A stretch of DNA of 20,000 nucleotides, from contig JBNGIO010006217.1 of assembly GCA_049999805.1 (NCBI GenBank), positions 174,152 to 194,151 on the forward strand, in the 5' to 3' direction. A model generated the notes under the pieces. It saw only the letters and a list, made by a program, of their open reading frames with translations. It was not told where the DNA came from and made no database searches. The translations under genes were made by a program, and so were the position numbers. Each line of letters starts with the position of its first letter. The first letter of the stretch is position 1. Source of the DNA: Folioceros fuciformis. Taxonomy: Eukaryota. This document shows positions 7,634-20,000 of the stretch, in pieces.

Positions 7634-9544
7634 GCCAGCATGATTTAGCTTGGCTGTAGCAATCCACATCTATTTACAAGATGTTGCTTTGGTTTTCAAG
7701 TTGTTCAAAACATGTCATGGTACAAGATGCTAGTCTAGCTTTCAAGTTGTACAAAACACCCTAACCTTGAGTCAAGCCTTCTTCACAAGGGAAGCACCAC
7801 AAGACAAAACAAGGAGAGTCCAAACCAAAATCACACCTACAGCGTTGAAGTGTTGAAAGCAACCCAATGCCAAAACAAAGACTATTCAAAATCGTTTATA
7901 CAAGTAATGAAATCCCTTCCCAAGTGATTAAGTGCATGGGAGAGGCATCCATTCAATAGCATTCCCAAGACACATCCATACAATAGCATTCTAGAAGAGG
8001 ACTGATTACAGGAATAGGTGTAGCAACCTTAATATGACTAGTGGTGAAGACAATGATGGACATGAGTTGGATGTTATTGGGTGGTCAAGGTGTGGCGGCC
8101 TCTAGCTCATACAATATGCAAATTGTAGCATTGGAGATGACTCCATTTAGAGGATCAAGCTCTTCATCAAGGGGTGAGAAGTTATGGACCATGAGGTAGA
8201 TTCTTCATGTGTTGTAGACATGAATTAAGTTTTGTGATGGCAGCATTGCAAATTGCAAGATGGAGGATGAGGTCCCCACACCTTTGGTAGGTTAAAGCTA
8301 TTTGTCTTCTTTGGATTAAGTTTTCCTTCCCATACTTGGTGTTTGTGCCGATCTATAAACTTTGATACCCTTCATTGTGGAACAAAGAGAAGTGCCCCAT
8401 AAGGTGAGAAGGCATGTAGGGTGAGAAGGCAAGCTCCTTTTGCAGATGTCTAAAATAACAAAGAAAAGCCTCTCCCCTACTAGGTGGAGGACATATGGTT
8501 TTTTCATTATAGATATCTAAACTCACAAGTCCATTACTTGAAAGAACCCCTAACTCTAGAGCCAAGGAAAAGAAAACCTTGCATCACATACCCTTGTACC
8601 AAAACTTTTATAACATCAAAGTTGATGTTGTCTATATTTGATAGAATGGAAGAATGTGATATACTAAAAATAGAATATCGTTCTCGCCTACCTTGCAAGT
8701 GTAATTATATTATTAAAAAAAGATTAAAAAAAAAATCCATCTACCCCAAAGAAGAGGAGAACAACTTGAAGGGTTACTACCTCCAATATCTATGAACTAA
8801 TCCTAAAAAACTCCTCCTTGAGTGCTTTATTTATTTTAGAAGAACGAGATGAAAAAACCTATCTACCCTTAGAGATAAACCATGAAAGGTACACAAGGTG
8901 CTAACTCCCTCAAGCCTAAAGATTATTGATTAGCACCTAAAACATGATTTGGGAAGAGAAAGGGTCTAGGGTTGGTAACACTTCCTCTCTTACCACATGG
9001 TCATCCTTATATGGTATTAGAAAAGACCTAAAAAACCTTAAAAAAAAAAAGACAAACCTAGAACACCTAAAAAAATAAGAAAAGACAACCTAGAACAGAG
9101 AATCCACTCTATCTAGTATGGATTTATGGGCAGAGATGTTTTAAATAATAAAAGAATTTATTGAAAGATAAATAATAAATAATATTAATGCTATAAAGTA
9201 AAAAATTGGAAGTAGAGAAGACAAGAAAATTAATATAATAGTTGGTCTTGGGAAGATCACCTGTTGATAGACAACTCATGGATGGTGGAGTTTGGATGAA
9301 TCATTGCTTTCAAGAAAAGCACACCATCATGGAGAAGGTAGCTTCTCCAAAGCTGCCGGGGTTGAAGCTGAGTTTACAGCATCACGTTTCTGTGCTGTCT
9401 TGCACGAAGGTGTAGCAATCAGTGTTCTAGATTTGATATGGGGTCCATAGATTTCATGAGCATCACTAGCCATTCTGCCACAGCGTAACTACAGATGTGT
9501 TTAAGTATGTCGTAGGCCTATTGTCCGAGAGCAGGGCCCGGAAG

Positions 9545-12457
9545 ATGGCCACAGCATGGCAACTGGATTTGTCTTACATCCAACAAATTGTTGGGGGTAC
9601 AGGAATTATCAGAGGAACTCCAGCTCATGTCACCTCAGGGAGTCGTCCGCTGGGATACAACCAAGCCTCCAGGTGCAGGACCGTGAGGAGCCCGGCTCTT
9701 CCATTGCCGGGAAAATGTGCAGGTGGATGCTCGAGGGATGGAGCCAGCCAGGGGCAGGAGCGGTTGTGGAGGCAATTATTTTTGGGTTCTGCCTTGTGGT
9801 GGGATGACAGGCGAGGTACGAAGAGGTTTCGTGCCCCTGACTTCCGACGTGAATGGTCTAGCCAGGTCTTGCTGGTAAACAACACAGCCGAGCCAACGCC
9901 AGCTTGGGCGGATGAGGAGCTCGTTTGCTTGGATTTGCGGATGGGTCGTGGTTCCTCTTGGTGGAAGAGGAAGCCTGTGGAGAAGAATGAGCCTGGCAGG
10001 CGTGGGGGGTCGGGAATGGGCGTCGTCACCGGTGTAACCGTGGGCACGCTGTGTCAGCAGGGGAAGCTTAATGAGGCTGTTGGAGCTTTGGAATATCTTG
10101 CCAAGGCGGAGGGTGCGATTTCTGAGTCTTTGTTTTATTCTGTGCTGAAACTGTGCGCGGCTAAGAGGGATCTGGTTTTGGGGCGACGGGTTCATGATCT
10201 CACCGTCAAACTTGGGTACGAGTCGAATTCGTACTTGGGGAACCATATCTTGCGCATGTATGCATCTGGAGGTCGGCTACAAGAGGCCATGGATGTGTTC
10301 ACCAGGGTGGGAAAACCAAATGCTTTCATGTGGTTTTCCATCATCTCCGCTCATGTGAAACATGGGAAGCCTAATGAGGCTATACAGCGGTACCATGCAA
10401 TGCGTGGCTCAGGTGTGACGGCAGATGCGCACGTCTTTGTAGCTGCTCTTCAAGCTTGTGCACTTGCCATGGACTTGGAATCTGGCAGGGGAGTACACTG
10501 TGATGTGTTGAACAGTCGCATGGCTCCTAACTTGTATGTTGGCAACAGCCTGGTTGACATGTATGCAAAATGTGGCGCACTGAAAGATGCACGCCAGGTT
10601 TTTGACAGCTTGACCGCTAAGGATGTGGTGACATGGAATTCCCTAATTGCTGGGTATGCACAGCAAGGGCTCGGTCAGGAGGCGCTTGGTCTGTATGGAC
10701 AAATGGAGGAAGAGGGCCTGATTTTGGCTAACCAAGTTACTTTCTCTTGCATTCTGAAGGCCTGTGCAAGCGCTGGTGCTTTGCAGAAGGGCAGGGAGGT
10801 GCACTCACAGATTGTTCAAAGAGGACTGCTGGACAACATGCTCGTGAGCACCTGCCTGTTGGACATGTATGCAAAGTGTGGTGCATTGAAAGATGCACGT
10901 CTAGTTTTTGATAGCTTGGCCACTAAGGATGTGGTGACATGGAATGCCTTGATTGCTGGGTATGCCAATCAAGGGCTCTGCCAAGAGGCGCTCGTTCTGT
11001 ATGGCCAAATGGAGCAGGAGGGCATAGTTGTGCCTGACCATGTTACTTTTGCAGGCCTTCTGAAGGCCTGTGCAAGCGTTGGTGCCTTAAAGAAGGGCAG
11101 GCAGCTGCACACTCAGATTGTGAAAAGAGGATTGATAGATGACATAGTGCTGGGCAACGCTCTGGTGGACATGTATGCAAAATGCGGAGAAATGAGGGAT
11201 GCACAAGGGGTTTTTGACAGCTTGGCCTCAAAAAATGTGGTGACATGGACGGCCCTGATAGCTGGGTATGCACAGCAAGGGCTTGGCGAAGAGGCGCTTG
11301 TTGTGTATGGACAAATGGAGCAAGAGGGCTTGATTTTGGCTAACCATGTTACTTTTGCTTGCCTTTTGAAGGTTTGCGCGAGCACCGGTGCCTTGCAGAA
11401 AGGCAGGGAGCTGCACTCACAGATTGTGGAAAGTGGACTGTTAGATAACATACTGGTAGGCAGTTGCCTGATAGACATGTATGCGAAGTGTGGCGAACTG
11501 GAAGACGCACGAAGGGTTTTCGACAGCTTGGCCACAAAAAGTGTGGTGACATGGACGGCCCTGATATCTGGCTGTGGGGCTTGTGATGAAGGCCACTCCG
11601 CAGTAGCTTGTTTTGAGGCGATGTTGGATGCCAGTGTTCAGCCGGATGAAGCTACTTTTACTTGTCTTTTAGCAGCATGCAGTCATGAGGGACTCGTGCA
11701 TGAGGGACGCAAGCACTTCGATTCCATGGCTGAACAGCACGGCATCAATCCTACTATTGAGCATTACAATTGCATGATTGACCTTCTTGGGCGTGCAGGT
11801 CACTTAGACGAGGCAGAGAGCATGTTAGTATCATGTGGGAGCCAAAGCAATGCTGTGGGGTTGACATCTTTGCTTAGTTCCTGCAAGAGTTACGGGGATG
11901 TAGAGAGGGCGATACGGTGTTTTGAAAGCCTCGTTACGCTGGAGCCTCAGGGTGCATCGGCGTATGTGCTCATGGCCACTGCCTATGCAGACGCTGGGAG
12001 ATGGGCGGATGTGGACAGGATTGAAAAACGGAGAATGATGGCAGGAGCTAACAAGAAGCCTGCAATGGCAACCATTGAGGTGGAGAAGCAGGTACACACA
12101 TTTGTGGTTGGAGAAAACAGAGAAGATATTGCTCTCAAGGTGGGGAGCATGAACAAACGTCTGCAGCAGGAAGGGGGCCACGTGCCACTCACAGAGTTGG
12201 TGCTGAAGCCACTGCACGAGAAGGAAAAGGAGGATCAGCTTTGCGGGCATGCTGAGAAGCTAGCTCTGGCGTATGGTCTCTTGAATACCTCGGATGGCAC
12301 CCCTCTGCTGGTAACGAAGAATCTACGCATGTGCAGTGACTGCCACAGTTCCACGGAGGTCATGTCAAGGGTTGAAAAGAGAGACATTGTTGTCAGGGAT
12401 GGGTATCGTGTGCATCGATTCGCAGCTGGTGGATGCAGTTGTCGGGGTCGACCGTGA
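9545..12457 (+). CDS. PLS-class pentatricopeptide repeat protein with E1-E2 and DYW:KP (GRP-type) domain; putative organellar U-to-C RNA editing factor, ~970 aa
   Basis: Intronless ORF; first in-frame ATG at 9545 (the track start at 9497 is GTG). There is a long N-terminal extension, then about 17 PPR motifs from ~10121 (L-S-[P-L-S]x4-P2-L2-S2) and E1/E2. A 133-aa C-terminal domain starts at 12056: KPAMATIEV...LCGHAEKLALAYGLL...KNLRMCSDCH...VHRF...CSCRGRP*. Confidence 0.96.
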   Translation: MATAWQLDLSYIQQIVGGTGIIRGTPAHVTSGSRPLGYNQASRCRTVRSPALPLPGKCAGGCSRDGASQGQERLWRQLFLGSALWWDDRRGTKRFRAPDFRREWSSQVLLVNNTAEPTPAWADEELVCLDLRMGRGSSWWKRKPVEKNEPGRRGGSGMGVVTGVTVGTLCQQGKLNEAVGALEYLAKAEGAISESLFYSVLKLCAAKRDLVLGRRVHDLTVKLGYESNSYLGNHILRMYASGGRLQEAMDVFTRVGKPNAFMWFSIISAHVKHGKPNEAIQRYHAMRGSGVTADAHVFVAALQACALAMDLESGRGVHCDVLNSRMAPNLYVGNSLVDMYAKCGALKDARQVFDSLTAKDVVTWNSLIAGYAQQGLGQEALGLYGQMEEEGLILANQVTFSCILKACASAGALQKGREVHSQIVQRGLLDNMLVSTCLLDMYAKCGALKDARLVFDSLATKDVVTWNALIAGYANQGLCQEALVLYGQMEQEGIVVPDHVTFAGLLKACASVGALKKGRQLHTQIVKRGLIDDIVLGNALVDMYAKCGEMRDAQGVFDSLASKNVVTWTALIAGYAQQGLGEEALVVYGQMEQEGLILANHVTFACLLKVCASTGALQKGRELHSQIVESGLLDNILVGSCLIDMYAKCGELEDARRVFDSLATKSVVTWTALISGCGACDEGHSAVACFEAMLDASVQPDEATFTCLLAACSHEGLVHEGRKHFDSMAEQHGINPTIEHYNCMIDLLGRAGHLDEAESMLVSCGSQSNAVGLTSLLSSCKSYGDVERAIRCFESLVTLEPQGASAYVLMATAYADAGRWADVDRIEKRRMMAGANKKPAMATIEVEKQVHTFVVGENREDIALKVGSMNKRLQQEGGHVPLTELVLKPLHEKEKEDQLCGHAEKLALAYGLLNTSDGTPLLVTKNLRMCSDCHSSTEVMSRVEKRDIVVRDGYRVHRFAAGGCSCRGRP
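10541..11570 (+). repeat. Intragenic 306-bp tandem repeat (S-P-L triplet, 102 aa), ~3.4 copies
   Basis: gacatgtatgc occurs at 10556, 10862, 11168 and 11474 (exact 306-nt spacing), with clear nucleotide-level similarity across units. Confidence 0.92.
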
Positions 12458-13144
12458 GAATGATGATGAACTAGGCAGTCAGTGATTCCGAGCAGGGGAT
12501 GGGTCTGGAAGCCCTTGTCCTTTCCCGGTGCGGTGATGGGTCATTTGGAGGCGGTTTCCCGTTGGCTTCAGTATTACCCACACTGAGGCCAAGCTCCAAC
12601 TGCTGTCTGGATCTTGTGCTCTGCCGGGCTTGACTTTGTCAAAACGGAGACTTCCCAGGTCTGCGCTGCGGAACGAACATATCCGTGAGTGGGTTTGTCC
12701 TCTGCCAACTGCTTTGGCCTACACAGCAGCTGGCCAGAAGGACAGAAAACCCTTTATCCTATTCTAGACCTCGTACTCGAATCTGAGCACGAAACAGCTT
12801 CCCAGTCTGCATGTGTGGAGGAACGCATTCAATACAACAGTGCATTCCTATCTCTGATCCGCCTAGGCTGGACCCCGAAGAGTCCAGTACCACAACCTTC
12901 TCTTCAGCGAGCACAGTGGAGTGGACGAGACCCCACCGACAATGACATGCGAGCAGCAAAGCTGAAGGCGGTCCACTTGGACACTAAACTGTCCAGACCA
13001 ATCTTTCGACAGGCACTCGGCCAGAAGATTTTGTTCGTGTATTGTGCATGCCGCGATTTGTGCTTGGCTGGTCAATAAAGATCGGAGCACTCAAGGTGTT
13101 CTTGAAACCCGTGGTCTTCAAAGTTCCTGGAGTTGGGCAGTGGA

Positions 13145-13211
13145 TCCGTTTGTCCTCGCAGTTGCAGGAGGTGGACAGTGAGTCCGTTTTCCTCGCAGTT
13201 GCAGGAGGTGG
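13145..13211. repeat. Short direct repeat (~30 bp, period 38)
   Basis: tccgttt(g)tcctcgcagttgcaggaggtgg at 13145 and 13183. Confidence 0.85.
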
Positions 13212-13362
13212 GCCGTGTTATACATCGGTGTTAGCAGCTCACTCCGTTGCATGTTATGGCTTGAGCTTTATCAAGTTTCCGCGAAGCTTTTCTCTGGCTT
13301 CGATCCTTTCTGATCGAATAGGTTGTGTGCTACCCGTGTGGAATTAGGAGATCAGACCTGAT

Positions 13363-13462
13363 NNNNNNNNNNNNNNNNNNNNNNNNNNNNNNNNNNNNNN
13401 NNNNNNNNNNNNNNNNNNNNNNNNNNNNNNNNNNNNNNNNNNNNNNNNNNNNNNNNNNNNNN
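13363..13462. other. Assembly gap (100 N)
   Basis: Run of N directly upstream of the BDP1-like ORF. Confidence 0.98.
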
Positions 13463-13472
13463 GAGGAGGAGG

Positions 13473-14648
13473 ATGGAGGCTGCTGGCCCGGCGGAAGAAG
13501 CGGCAGCGGCAGGAAAGAAGAGGTGCCTTGTGCGTTTGACAAGGTCTGTGACGGCAGCAGCGCGACGGTATGATGAAAGGGAAAGGAATGAGGGAGAGCT
13601 GGAGCCTGCTGGAGGCGGCGAGGCTGCTTCCAGCCAGGAAGCAGAGCCAGCTGCTGAAGAGAATCAGGCCAGGGCTAAGAATGGCGGGACAAAGAAACGG
13701 AAGAGGATGGACACGCGGGAGGTCTTGAAGCAGATGGAGGCGGAAGGTGTGGACCCGCTGAAGATGAAAATGAGCGACCTGATATGGCGTGCACAAGCGC
13801 TGGAGAGACTCAAGGCCAAGGACGACCCTGCGAAAAAGGCGCCTGCGCAGAGGCGGGTGGTGCAAGAAGCCAGGAATGGGGACGCGCAGCGAGTGGAACC
13901 TGTGGCTGTGGCGGCTCCGCAGGTGCAGGTGGTTGATGGAAGAATTGTGATCAACGAGGAGAGCCTGGTGATATCGTCTCACGCCACCGAGGCACGGAAC
14001 GGGGAAGGGTATACCAGGGTGGAGGAGAACGTGTCCAAGCTGAATTACCACAGCTACAGCAACCGCGAGAAGGTGGACCGGTGGAAGCCTGAGGAGACTG
14101 ATAGGTTCTACAAGGCGTTGGAGCAGTTCGGGACCGATTTCGGGTTGATCGAGCACCTGTTCCCGGGTCGGACACGGCGGCAGGTGAAGGCCAAGTACAA
14201 GATTGAGGAGAGGCTGAACCCTCGCCGCCTGGATGACGCTTTGAATTGCATGTCCCGGGGACCTGTGTATCACCAGGAATTGGTTGAGATGTTGATGCCC
14301 CAGCCCCAGCCCCAGCCCGCAGATGAAGTGGAGGATGTGCTTGATGGAGGTGGTGCAACGATGAAGCCGGGTAACGTGCCCGTGGAGGATGAGGTGCTCG
14401 TGGAAGATGTTGCAGCAGGTGAAGCTAACGTTGCTGCAGCTTCGGACAGGAAGTCTGGAATGGACGGGGATGGAGGGAATGAGGTAGTGGACGGTGTTGC
14501 TCCTGCTGGAGAAGAGCAGGTGAATAATGGCCAGGGCAGTGCAGGAGTGCCTGAAGACAACGGGCCTTATGTCTCGACCTTCCCGGAGCCTGAGGAAAAC
14601 GACCTAGAGCCTCCTGATTCCCCTCCCGTGCCCATGTTCAGTTATTGA
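13473..14648 (+). CDS. BDP1: BDP1-like protein (TFIIIB B'' subunit, SANT/Myb-like domain); 5' end uncertain
   Basis: The 391-aa ORF has DPLKMKMSDLI, APQVQVVDGRIVINEESLVI and the BDP1 SANT segment KLNYHSY...RWKPEETDRFYKALEQFGTDFGLIEHLFPGRTRRQVKAKYKIEERLNPRRLDDAL (~14037-14243), followed by an acidic low-complexity tail. The frame stays open back to the gap. Confidence 0.88.
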   Translation: MEAAGPAEEAAAAGKKRCLVRLTRSVTAAARRYDERERNEGELEPAGGGEAASSQEAEPAAEENQARAKNGGTKKRKRMDTREVLKQMEAEGVDPLKMKMSDLIWRAQALERLKAKDDPAKKAPAQRRVVQEARNGDAQRVEPVAVAAPQVQVVDGRIVINEESLVISSHATEARNGEGYTRVEENVSKLNYHSYSNREKVDRWKPEETDRFYKALEQFGTDFGLIEHLFPGRTRRQVKAKYKIEERLNPRRLDDALNCMSRGPVYHQELVEMLMPQPQPQPADEVEDVLDGGGATMKPGNVPVEDEVLVEDVAAGEANVAAASDRKSGMDGDGGNEVVDGVAPAGEEQVNNGQGSAGVPEDNGPYVSTFPEPEENDLEPPDSPPVPMFSY

Positions 14649-18016: not shown

Positions 18017-20000
18017 TTAAGACTTTTGCCATGGCATCTTGACGTTAGGCAGGTGGTAGGGCGCGCAATTCTTCATATGGTCTGTGATGGTGCGCCCATC
18101 TGACCCTTGCAGTAGCAAGACCCCATTTGGTCGGACCTCCTTGACTCGCAACACATGATGGCTGCTGACAGAGTCCAAAGTGTCCCCTATTTGGCGTTGC
18201 AAGTATACGAAATCCCCCACTTGAAATTTCTTCAGTTTGGGTCTGAAACTACCACTGCGAGTGTAGGCATACCGCAATGTGTCCCGGTGCTATGCAATGC
18301 GGAGATTGGCCATTGCATGGGCATCACTTGCCTGAACAATGTAGCCCTCTCACCAATAGCACGTGGCCAAGCAGCAGGGTCATCTAGATCCAAAACTCTT
18401 GCCATTTGCTTGGCAATAGCACTAGGCGGTATGGGCTCCCTCCAAAATAGCAAAAAGTAGGGACTGAAGTGAGCTAAGGAGGCATGTTTGCTGAGCCTGT
18501 ACCCCATGGCAATGTATGGTAGGGCCAAATCCCACTTTGTCTTCAGCATCCGTAAGCACAGTTTCCTTAGTCCCTTCTTGATTGTTTGCACCATACGCCC
18601 TGCGAGACCATCAGCTTGGGGGTGATCTTGGCTAGTCCTGCGATGGTCAATCAATGCTGCATCCAGCAGATCTTGGAATTCTCCTCGGAATTTAGAGCCC
18701 TGATCTGTCAAGCATTCAGCACAACTTCCAAATCGTGCCAGCACATTCTGAAGGAAAGCCTGCGCTATGCTTCTAGATGTCTTATCAGGAAGGGCCACCA
18801 CTTCAATCCACTTGCTGAAATGCTCCACCATAACAAGCACGTAGACATTGCCCCTTGGTGTATGAGGGAGTTCCCCAAGCAGGTCACATGACCACCGAAA
18901 GAACAGACCCATGATGGGCAAAGGCTGTAGCTGTGGATTCTGAATGTTGAAGGTGGTCTTCACTCTGTCACACTCCACACAACGAGCCACTTGTTGCTTC
19001 ACCTGGGCATGCATCCCGTACCAATGAAAATGTGGGACGAGGAGGCTGTAGGTCCTTTTGACACCAAAGTGACCCATGTCGTCATGGACTCGACGAATCA
19101 ACTGCTCCCTCTCAACTGGTGGAGGCACAAGACGTTCCACTCCGTTACCCAACCTTCGCAGCAAGTAGTTGTCTCGCCAGTAGTATTGCCTAGCACGTTG
19201 ACCGATCTGGTCCTGGGTTGCTGGCTTTAGTGACGTGTCCAGCTGTCCAGTTTGCACAACGTGCAAAGTCTCAACATCCTCCCAAATGTCCTTGGGCCTG
19301 GTAGTACTTGCATTAACCTCTAGCTGTCCCAAGCATATCATGGCCACTAGGGCTGCCACTTCAAGACCCTCTGCCTCATCGCTATCCAGATCCTGTCGGG
19401 CTGCGGTTACATCAACATGACTGTCACTAGGATTCATAGACAAGGTGTCAGCATTCTGGTGTTTCACGCTAGGCCTGTGCACCACATTGAACTCATAATC
19501 TTGCAAGATCATAGCCCATCTTGCCAACTTACCACTGATTTTGGTGTTTGTCATCAGCCACTTGAGAGGCTGGTGATCTGTCACCAATGTAAAGGGCTTC
19601 CCAAACAAATATGGGCGAAAATGGCAAACAGCCCACACGGCCGCTAATCATTCCCCATGGTAACTGCTGTAGTTGTCCTCTGCACGGTTATTGCTACGGG
19701 ATGCGTAAGCTATAACGCGCTCGCGTCCCTCTTCTTCTAGCTGTGCAAGGACAGCCCCAAGACCTAGCACACTCCAGTCTGTGTGCACCACAAAGGCCTT
19801 GGAAAAATCAGGTCTGGCCATCACAAGGGCTGTGATTAGCTGAGCCTTGAGCATGTCAAAGGCCTCCTGTGTAGCAGCTGTCCAGCTCCAGTGCACATCC
19901 TTGCGCAGCAGATCATTTCAGTGGCTTTGCAATTCGGCTGAAACTCTGAATGTATACCCTGTAATAGTTGCATAAGCCCAAGAAAGCCCTCAATGCTGAA
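18017..20000 (-). mobile_element. Decayed Ty3/gypsy LTR retrotransposon pol (RT C-terminus, RNase H, integrase); runs off the window end
   Basis: Motifs: LRAFLGLCNYYR (RT thumb); VHTDWS..GLGAVL..ERVIAYASR..YSSY.GE*LAAVWAV.HFRPYL..LVTDHQPLKWL (RNase H); H-x4-H...CVEC zinc finger; integrase core CDLLG / LTDQG / GLAGRMV. The RT-RH-INT order indicates gypsy. Lesions: frameshift ~19917, TGA 19648-19650, frameshift ~18316, TAG 18290-18292. Confidence 0.95.

Follow-up and report, generated by a model that had tools for sequence, protein, structure and literature searches.

Our analysis suggests that a gene in a 20,000-nucleotide stretch of Folioceros fuciformis DNA (GenBank assembly GCA_049999805.1, contig JBNGIO010006217.1, positions 174,152 to 194,151 of the forward strand; this whole stretch is called the window below) encodes a native U-to-C RNA editing factor. 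We put the probability of this reading at about three in four, with the direction of editing suggested by the subgroup to which the protein belongs. The product is a pentatricopeptide repeat (PPR) protein of the PLS class which ends in E1 and E2 motifs and a DYW:KP domain, and from its sequence it would be a nuclear-encoded and site-specific RNA editing factor, with an organelle as its predicted destination. The sequence comparisons give a solid assignment of its domain to the GRP subgroup of DYW:KP. The gene adds a so far uncharacterised member to this subgroup, which is one of the two already described among the hornwort DYW:KP proteins, i.e. DRH and GRP, named by their last three residues (PMC9478123, crediting Gerke et al. 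2020; here and for all the papers cited below on KP domains, on OTP86 and on hornwort PPR proteins, our statements draw on excerpts of the source). The features discussed are collected in Table 1.

The gene is intact along its whole length, with no stop and no frameshift in its 970 codons. The forward-strand frame is open from 9497 to 12457, and we took the coding sequence (CDS) to begin at 9545 because this is the first in-frame ATG and the only in-frame methionine ahead of an N-terminal block to which the relatives P0001 and P0005 could be aligned. This shared block spans residues ~73-130 (window 9761-9934), carries the patterns WR..F, WWD.R, DFR and P.W.DE.L..LD, and lies 5' of the first PPR motif. 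The first 60 residues contain 6 K/R, 1 D/E and 10 S/T, and by composition alone they look like an organelle presequence; the N-terminal 158 residues gave no Pfam match and no usable Atlas match. The rest of the protein has Pfam matches far above chance: PPR (1.7e-79), PPR_2 (8.4e-79), E_motif (6.5e-12, residues 799-861 of the 986-residue open reading frame, ORF) and DYW_deaminase PF14432 (E-value 1.3e-31, the last 91 residues), and PPR_1 and PPR_3 match as well. A six-codon out-of-frame upstream ORF (9495-9515, forward strand, ATG at 9495) is located shortly 5' of the main ATG.

The C-terminal domain differs from the canonical PG-type DYW domains at the motifs by which the latter are known, and retains every residue known to be required for editing. 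Its positions are counted here from the K1-P2 dipeptide, a numbering cross-checked by the domain length of 133, by G64 and M92, and by the positions mutated in the designer protein KP6 (PMC9478123, PMC11845758), for which an offset of 625 was derived from the equal domain length. The sequence-only reading had placed the domain at 12056-12457, with KPAMATIEV instead of the PG box, GENREDI instead of SHP, HAE at 12248-12256, CSDC at 12332-12343 and a terminal GRP, and we found each of these at its place. The domain takes up the last 133 codons of the ORF (12056-12454, with the ORF ending at 12457), and GRP is at 12446-12454. GENREDI stands where the PG-type domains carry their xSHP insert, which gives a four-residue gap against the solved PG-type chains. 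The motifs RVHRF and CSC are also present.

The earlier claim that the zinc-ligand positions are retained is likewise borne out. In the OTP86 structure Zn1 is bound by H892, C920 and C923 and Zn2 by H924, H947, C954 and C956, with E894 as the catalytic residue and K915 in the active site (PMC7611903). These positions map one-to-one and at the same spacings to the window domain, and the corresponding columns H65, E67, K88, C93, C96, H97, H120, C127 and C129 are invariant in all 46 sequences of our alignment A2 (the window, 32 KP-type and 13 PG-type domains). The five lysines probed in KP6, at domain positions 1, 51, 58, 68 and 88, are all Lys in the window. In OTP86, whose structure was solved in the inactive state, S828 and S893 tether K915 to E894 (PMC7611903), and the residues aligned to them are A5 (12068-12070) and A66 (12251-12253). 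Alanines at these two positions may release Lys88 for nucleophilic attack.

CHSSTE, which the sequence-only reading gave as a departure from the usual CH-x-x-x-K, is present, and its interpretation needs a refinement. The Glu is at position 101, where it replaces a structural lysine (PG K103) and not the active-site Lys88, which is kept. Position 101 is T, E, E and Q in the four GRP-ending matches and Lys in 57 of the 58 other matches (the residue counts at this position and at positions 116 and 117 were made by eye), so that this Glu represents a GRP hallmark at a structural site rather than a change in the active site. The GRP proteins have been described as having Glu in place of the structural Lys and as lacking the Asp of DYW (PMC9478123), which corresponds to E101 and G131 in the window, and the four GRP-ending matches show this pattern as well.

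The homologues, the tree and the profiles agree on the subclass, as the earlier assignment to DYW:KP had it. With the C-terminal 197 residues as the query we obtained 62 proteins. Their N-terminal box and the residue that follows the zinc-binding His divide them into 32 KP-type and 30 PG-type. In a maximum-likelihood tree of 63 domains, PG and KP separate with 100/99 support, and the window lies on the KP side in a clade of all five GRP-ending sequences (100/98), which is nested in a group of 16 (95/91) whose other members are of the DRH type, with three named fern KP domains outside this group; the bootstrap is not fully settled (correlation 0.973), hence its values are rough, and SH-aLRT agrees with them. 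Profiles built without the window sequence score its domain at 239.4 bits for GRP (four members), 210.4 for all KP, 204.1 for KP without GRP and 142.4 for PG. The KP-minus-PG difference in a leave-one-out scoring ranges from +2.6 to +84.9 for the 32 KP members and from -78.2 to -16.6 for the 30 PG members, and is +68 for the window. The nearest relative is 57% identical overall and 73-74% identical in the C-terminal part.

Published descriptions define DYW:KP by the K-P dipeptide (PMC11845758, PMC11332814) and add Ala or Cys for Ser after the zinc His (HAE/HCE), a length of 132-133 residues without xHP and a terminus other than DYW (PMC9478123, PMC11845758, PMC11332814). The window domain has all of these, i.e. 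the K-P start, HAE, 133 residues, no xHP and a non-DYW terminus, together with Lys88. The GRP traits are complete as well: the terminal G-R-P, E101, G131 and a clade separate from DRH. So are the architectural traits of PLS-PPR editing factors in general, which are P, L and S motifs, E1-E2 and a deaminase-like fold with the Zn1 and Zn2 ligands. None of the four PG-type traits (PGxSWIE, SHP, HSE, DYW) is present.

A representative library contains 2346 matching proteins at E-value <=0.001, 1473 at <=1e-10 and 9 at <=1e-30. Among its best 150 matches, the 144 added rows consist of 120 with HSE, 12 with HCE, 10 with HAE, one with HVE and one without the motif, and these best 150 include no further GRP-ending member beyond P0005. 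A search of shorter proteins, with 16 sequences inspected, brought up additional fragments of the DRH/DRP type but no other GRP/Glu101 member. The Atlas matches of the E1-E2-DYW part are only to 'Streptophyta' DYW clusters, while the subgroup and the tree would by themselves point to a hornwort as the source.

The predicted fold is that of a DYW editing domain on its E1-E2 scaffold. The AlphaFold2 model of the E1-E2-DYW part, made on alignment A2, has a mean predicted local distance difference test score (pLDDT) of 94.7, with E1-E2 forming four helices. Its best match in the Protein Data Bank (PDB) is 9kfx_A, a synthetic PPR-DYW protein with RNA (E-value 1e-18, TM-score 0.88), followed by OTP86 (7o4e/7o4f) and DYW1 (7w86), and the modelled E1-E2 superposes on the E1-E2-DYW part of 9kfx_A. 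By sequence, the solved matches in PDB are all PG-type DYW domains, with no KP-type structure among them. These chains are 32-42% identical to the window. Like it, they have a deaminase-like fold with a gating insertion on an E1-E2 scaffold, and they carry the ligands of Zn1 and Zn2 together with the catalytic Glu and the active-site Lys. They differ in that the window has KP for PG, lacks the four-residue xSHP, and has HAE for HSE, Ala for the PG-box Ser, M92 for V95 and GRP for DYW. The PG-type proteins carry out C-to-U hydrolytic deamination, whereas the window protein would, by analogy with its subgroup, work from U to C.

Within the KP-type proteins the window is closest to the GRP subgroup and to the designers KP2 and KP3, sharing the K-P start, the 133 residues without xHP, HAE, Lys88, Glu101, Gly for the Asp of DYW and the G-R-P end, where the likeness to KP2/KP3 is drawn from the description of the subgroup in the citing papers. 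It differs from its GRP relatives in having Gly116-Tyr117, where three of the four have Ala-His and P0005 has Ala-Arg, and in a PPR code of its own. The DRH subgroup, to which the designer KP1 belongs, is the sister or surrounding group and shares KPAxA, HAE, Lys88 and M92 with 59-66% identity over the C-terminal 197 residues, but the DRH proteins keep Lys101 and Asp131 where the window has Glu101 and Gly131. The fern and lycophyte DYW:KP domains, represented by the designers KP4-KP6, resemble the window in having the KP box, HAE or HCE, and Lys88, and are likewise linked to U-to-C editing. The named fern domains (Adiantum, Ceratopteris) are nevertheless outside the clade of the window (99/90), are only 42-46% identical to it and have other termini.

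The direction of editing is suggested by what has been published on the designer proteins. KP2 and KP3, whose design follows the GRP consensus, act as U-to-C editors in both E. coli and HEK293T cells, with no C-to-U editing detected in the results described, while the HAA and AxxA mutants are inactive (PMC9478123). The statements of the sequence-only reading that synthetic KP domains have U-to-C activity and that the family is known are thus in line with this source. Its view that the chemistry is unresolved goes too far, as Lys88 is now proposed to be the nitrogen donor via an RNA-protein crosslink (PMC11845758, PMC11332814, PMC11713852). In the KP designers Lys88 is essential for both the U-to-C activity and the crosslink, and its replacement turns them into strong C-to-U editors (PMC11845758, PMC11713852, PMC11332814).

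Based on these data, we propose the following mechanism. The PPR array would recognise one or a few sites in the transcripts of plastids or mitochondria by reading ~18 nucleotides on their 5' side, and E1 and E2 would set the DYW:KP domain over the target base, four nucleotides downstream of the one read by S2. The uridine would be held in the deaminase-like pocket formed by zinc and Glu67, where the domain would convert it to C. Lys88, freed from the two serines of the PG type, both of which are Ala here, would attack C4 and give its nitrogen through a Schiff-base intermediate, which would be resolved to cytidine. The crosslink chemistry in this scheme would be carried over from the designer proteins only.

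The PPR array gives a readable code for the putative target. Its 18 motifs are 31, 35 or 36 residues long, and their borders and their fifth and last residues were assigned by hand on the translated sequence. With S2 placed at -4, the P and S motifs read -19 Y, -16 U, -15 Y, -13 G, -12 U, -10 Y, -9 A, -6 G and -4 Y. No base was assigned to motifs of the L type or to the E motifs.

Several observations weigh against a dedicated U-to-C editor with a maintained target. At most of its P and S motifs the window differs in code from the four other GRP-type relatives and from P0013, and since none of the four GRP relatives has the same code, there is no argument from cross-species conservation for a maintained target. 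A search for orthologs with residues 1-700 gave 7917 matches among 8000 scored candidates, at 34-51% identity and ranked by repeat-driven scores, with no ortholog among them. According to PMC11845758, assays of natural KP proteins were still lacking in early 2025, and the titles and opening abstract lines of the literature from 2023 on mention no such assay. The editing direction of KP domains is also labile: a few substitutions in KP6 shift it, and the window has G64, V113 and the non-consensus pair Gly116-Tyr117 at a direction-tuning site. Position 116 is Ala in 26 of the 32 KP-type matches and Gly in none of them nor in 15 further KP fragments; position 117 is His in 26 of the 32 and Tyr in two. 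This pair is the only trait that marks the window copy out.

An alternative hypothesis is that the protein is a working editor that goes from C to U or in both directions, rather than being dedicated to U-to-C. The designer KP6 edits in both directions in HEK293T cells (PMC9478123). The consensus-directed substitutions E64G, L113V and F133H make KP6 a pure C-to-U editor, and L6C, D116A and I119V make it a pure U-to-C editor, which shows why the residues of the window at 64, 113 and 116 could be read in favour of this hypothesis. However, G64 and V113 are the consensus states of KP domains and hence are expected in the U-to-C-active GRP designers too, of which KP2 and KP3 showed no C-to-U activity. 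Lys88, whose loss switches KP proteins to C-to-U, is kept in the window, and so are A66 and A5. We consider this hypothesis unlikely.

The gene might also be a recent, redundant or silent duplicate in a greatly expanded family, being intact by its youth and having no maintained editing site. The family is indeed large: the runs under three organism labels contain thousands of contig pieces 85-95% similar to the PPR part, which indicates a very large paralogous family and fits the more than 1400 PPR proteins reported for hornworts (PMC10030945). The unmatched PPR code and the non-consensus residues 116-117 would also agree with a duplicate, as would the code pairs of low specificity, one S-S and several N-N. 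There is a Ty3/gypsy fragment at a distance of 6 kb, and the expansion of PPR genes has been linked to retroposition (PMC13386178). On the other side, the 970 codons are undamaged, every invariant structural and catalytic column is retained, and the N-terminal block is conserved with paralogs. The nearest relative is so distant, at 57% overall, that the copy is not young. We also looked for a poly(A) tract 3' of the stop codon and found none, which counts against a retrocopy in particular. A silent or redundant copy therefore seems quite improbable to us.

The transcript-like data do not help in this respect. In a run under the same organism label, whose RNA nature is a guess, we found contigs identical to window positions 9331-9763, 9749-10219, 11056-11259 and 12401-13300. 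The gaps between them and their depth, which is swamped by paralogs, are evidence neither for nor against expression.

A C-to-U deaminase of the canonical DYW:PG type whose terminus had decayed would share the fold and the zinc and Glu residues of the PG-type structures, but this reading is hardly credible. It is ruled out by the tree and the profiles, which put the domain in KP with full support, and by the lack of the PG box, SHP, HSE and DYW altogether. The protein is best read as a probable native U-to-C editing factor.

We speculate that the GRP clade could be a mechanistically distinct branch of reverse editors, although we regard this as a long shot. A clamp between Lys101 and Asp131 holds the Zn2 lid to the deaminase core in the PG and DRH domains, and it is lost with E101 and G131. 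A looser lid could let the native enzyme resolve the Schiff base between Lys88 and the RNA and release cytidine. The window member also has Gly116-Tyr117 at the direction-tuning site.

The surroundings of the gene are ordinary eukaryotic nuclear DNA. Downstream of a scaffold gap is an ORF resembling the Bdp1 subunit of TFIIIB, and the Ty3/gypsy pol fragment is a retrotransposon remnant. The Mo25-like ORF is probably one exon of a multi-exon gene. Rfam has no match anywhere in the window.

Table 1. Features of the PPR gene and its neighbourhood, in window coordinates.
Feature	Position	Strand	Basis
PLS-class PPR-E1-E2-DYW:KP protein, intron-less complete CDS, 970 codons and TGA	9545..12457	+	ORF, Pfam domains
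N-terminal extension, residues 1-158	9545..10018	+	Composition; alignment with P0001 and P0005
PPR array of 18 motifs: degenerate first motif, L-S, four P1-L1-S1 triplets, P2-L2-S2	10019..11851	+	Hand layout on the translation, Pfam PPR matches
E1 helix-hairpin motif	11852..11953	+	Pfam E_motif, AlphaFold model
E2 helix-hairpin motif	11954..12055	+	Pfam E_motif, AlphaFold model
DYW:KP domain, GRP subtype, 133 residues	12056..12454	+	Length, PF14432, tree, profiles, fold
K1-P2, the dipeptide naming the subclass, in place of the PG box	12056..12061	+	Translation
H65-A66-E67: Zn1 ligand, Ala for the PG-type Ser, catalytic Glu	12248..12256	+	H and E invariant in 46/46
Lys88, active-site lysine (OTP86 K915, KP6 K713)	12317..12319	+	Alignment to OTP86, invariant in alignment A2
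C93-S-D-C96-H97: two Zn1 ligands and the first Zn2 ligand	12332..12346	+	OTP86 ligand list
Glu101 for the structural Lys (PG K103), GRP hallmark	12356..12358	+	Comparison with 62 matches
Gly116-Tyr117, against Ala-His in the KP consensus	12401..12406	+	Comparison with KP-type matches
H120, C127 and C129, the remaining Zn2 ligands (OTP86 H947, C954, C956)	12413..12442	+	Alignment
Terminal Gly-Arg-Pro (12446-12454), then TGA	12446..12457	+	Translation
Scaffold gap of 100 N	13364-13462		
Myb_DNA-bind_7 ORF (2.3e-27), like the TFIIIB Bdp1 subunit	13473-14648	+	Domain match; starts directly after the scaffold gap
Ty3/gypsy pol fragment with RNase H, integrase zinc finger and integrase core, separated from the PPR gene by ~6 kb	18232-19638	-	
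Mo25-like ORF, 5.1e-13 over 36 residues	3729-4304	-	

Among the pyrimidine transitions, U-to-C editing alone lacks an assay of a natural enzyme, and the knowledge of it rests on consensus KP designers that stay crosslinked to their RNA in bacteria. With its full ORF, its required residues and its confidently modelled fold, the window gene is a clean candidate for work on a natural protein. The value of the finding is practical rather than conceptual, since the gene is one of many such genes and its subgroup has been both described and exploited. Gly116/Tyr117 represents a natural variant at a direction-shifting site, which could inform mutagenesis. If the lid of the GRP domains were indeed looser, a natural GRP protein such as this one would offer for study the first U-to-C enzyme capable of turnover, where the designers in bacteria fail at release. 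Any native KP gene that is intact and whose PPR code can be read could serve for pairing a factor with its site, and for testing on a real enzyme whether Lys88 is the nitrogen donor.

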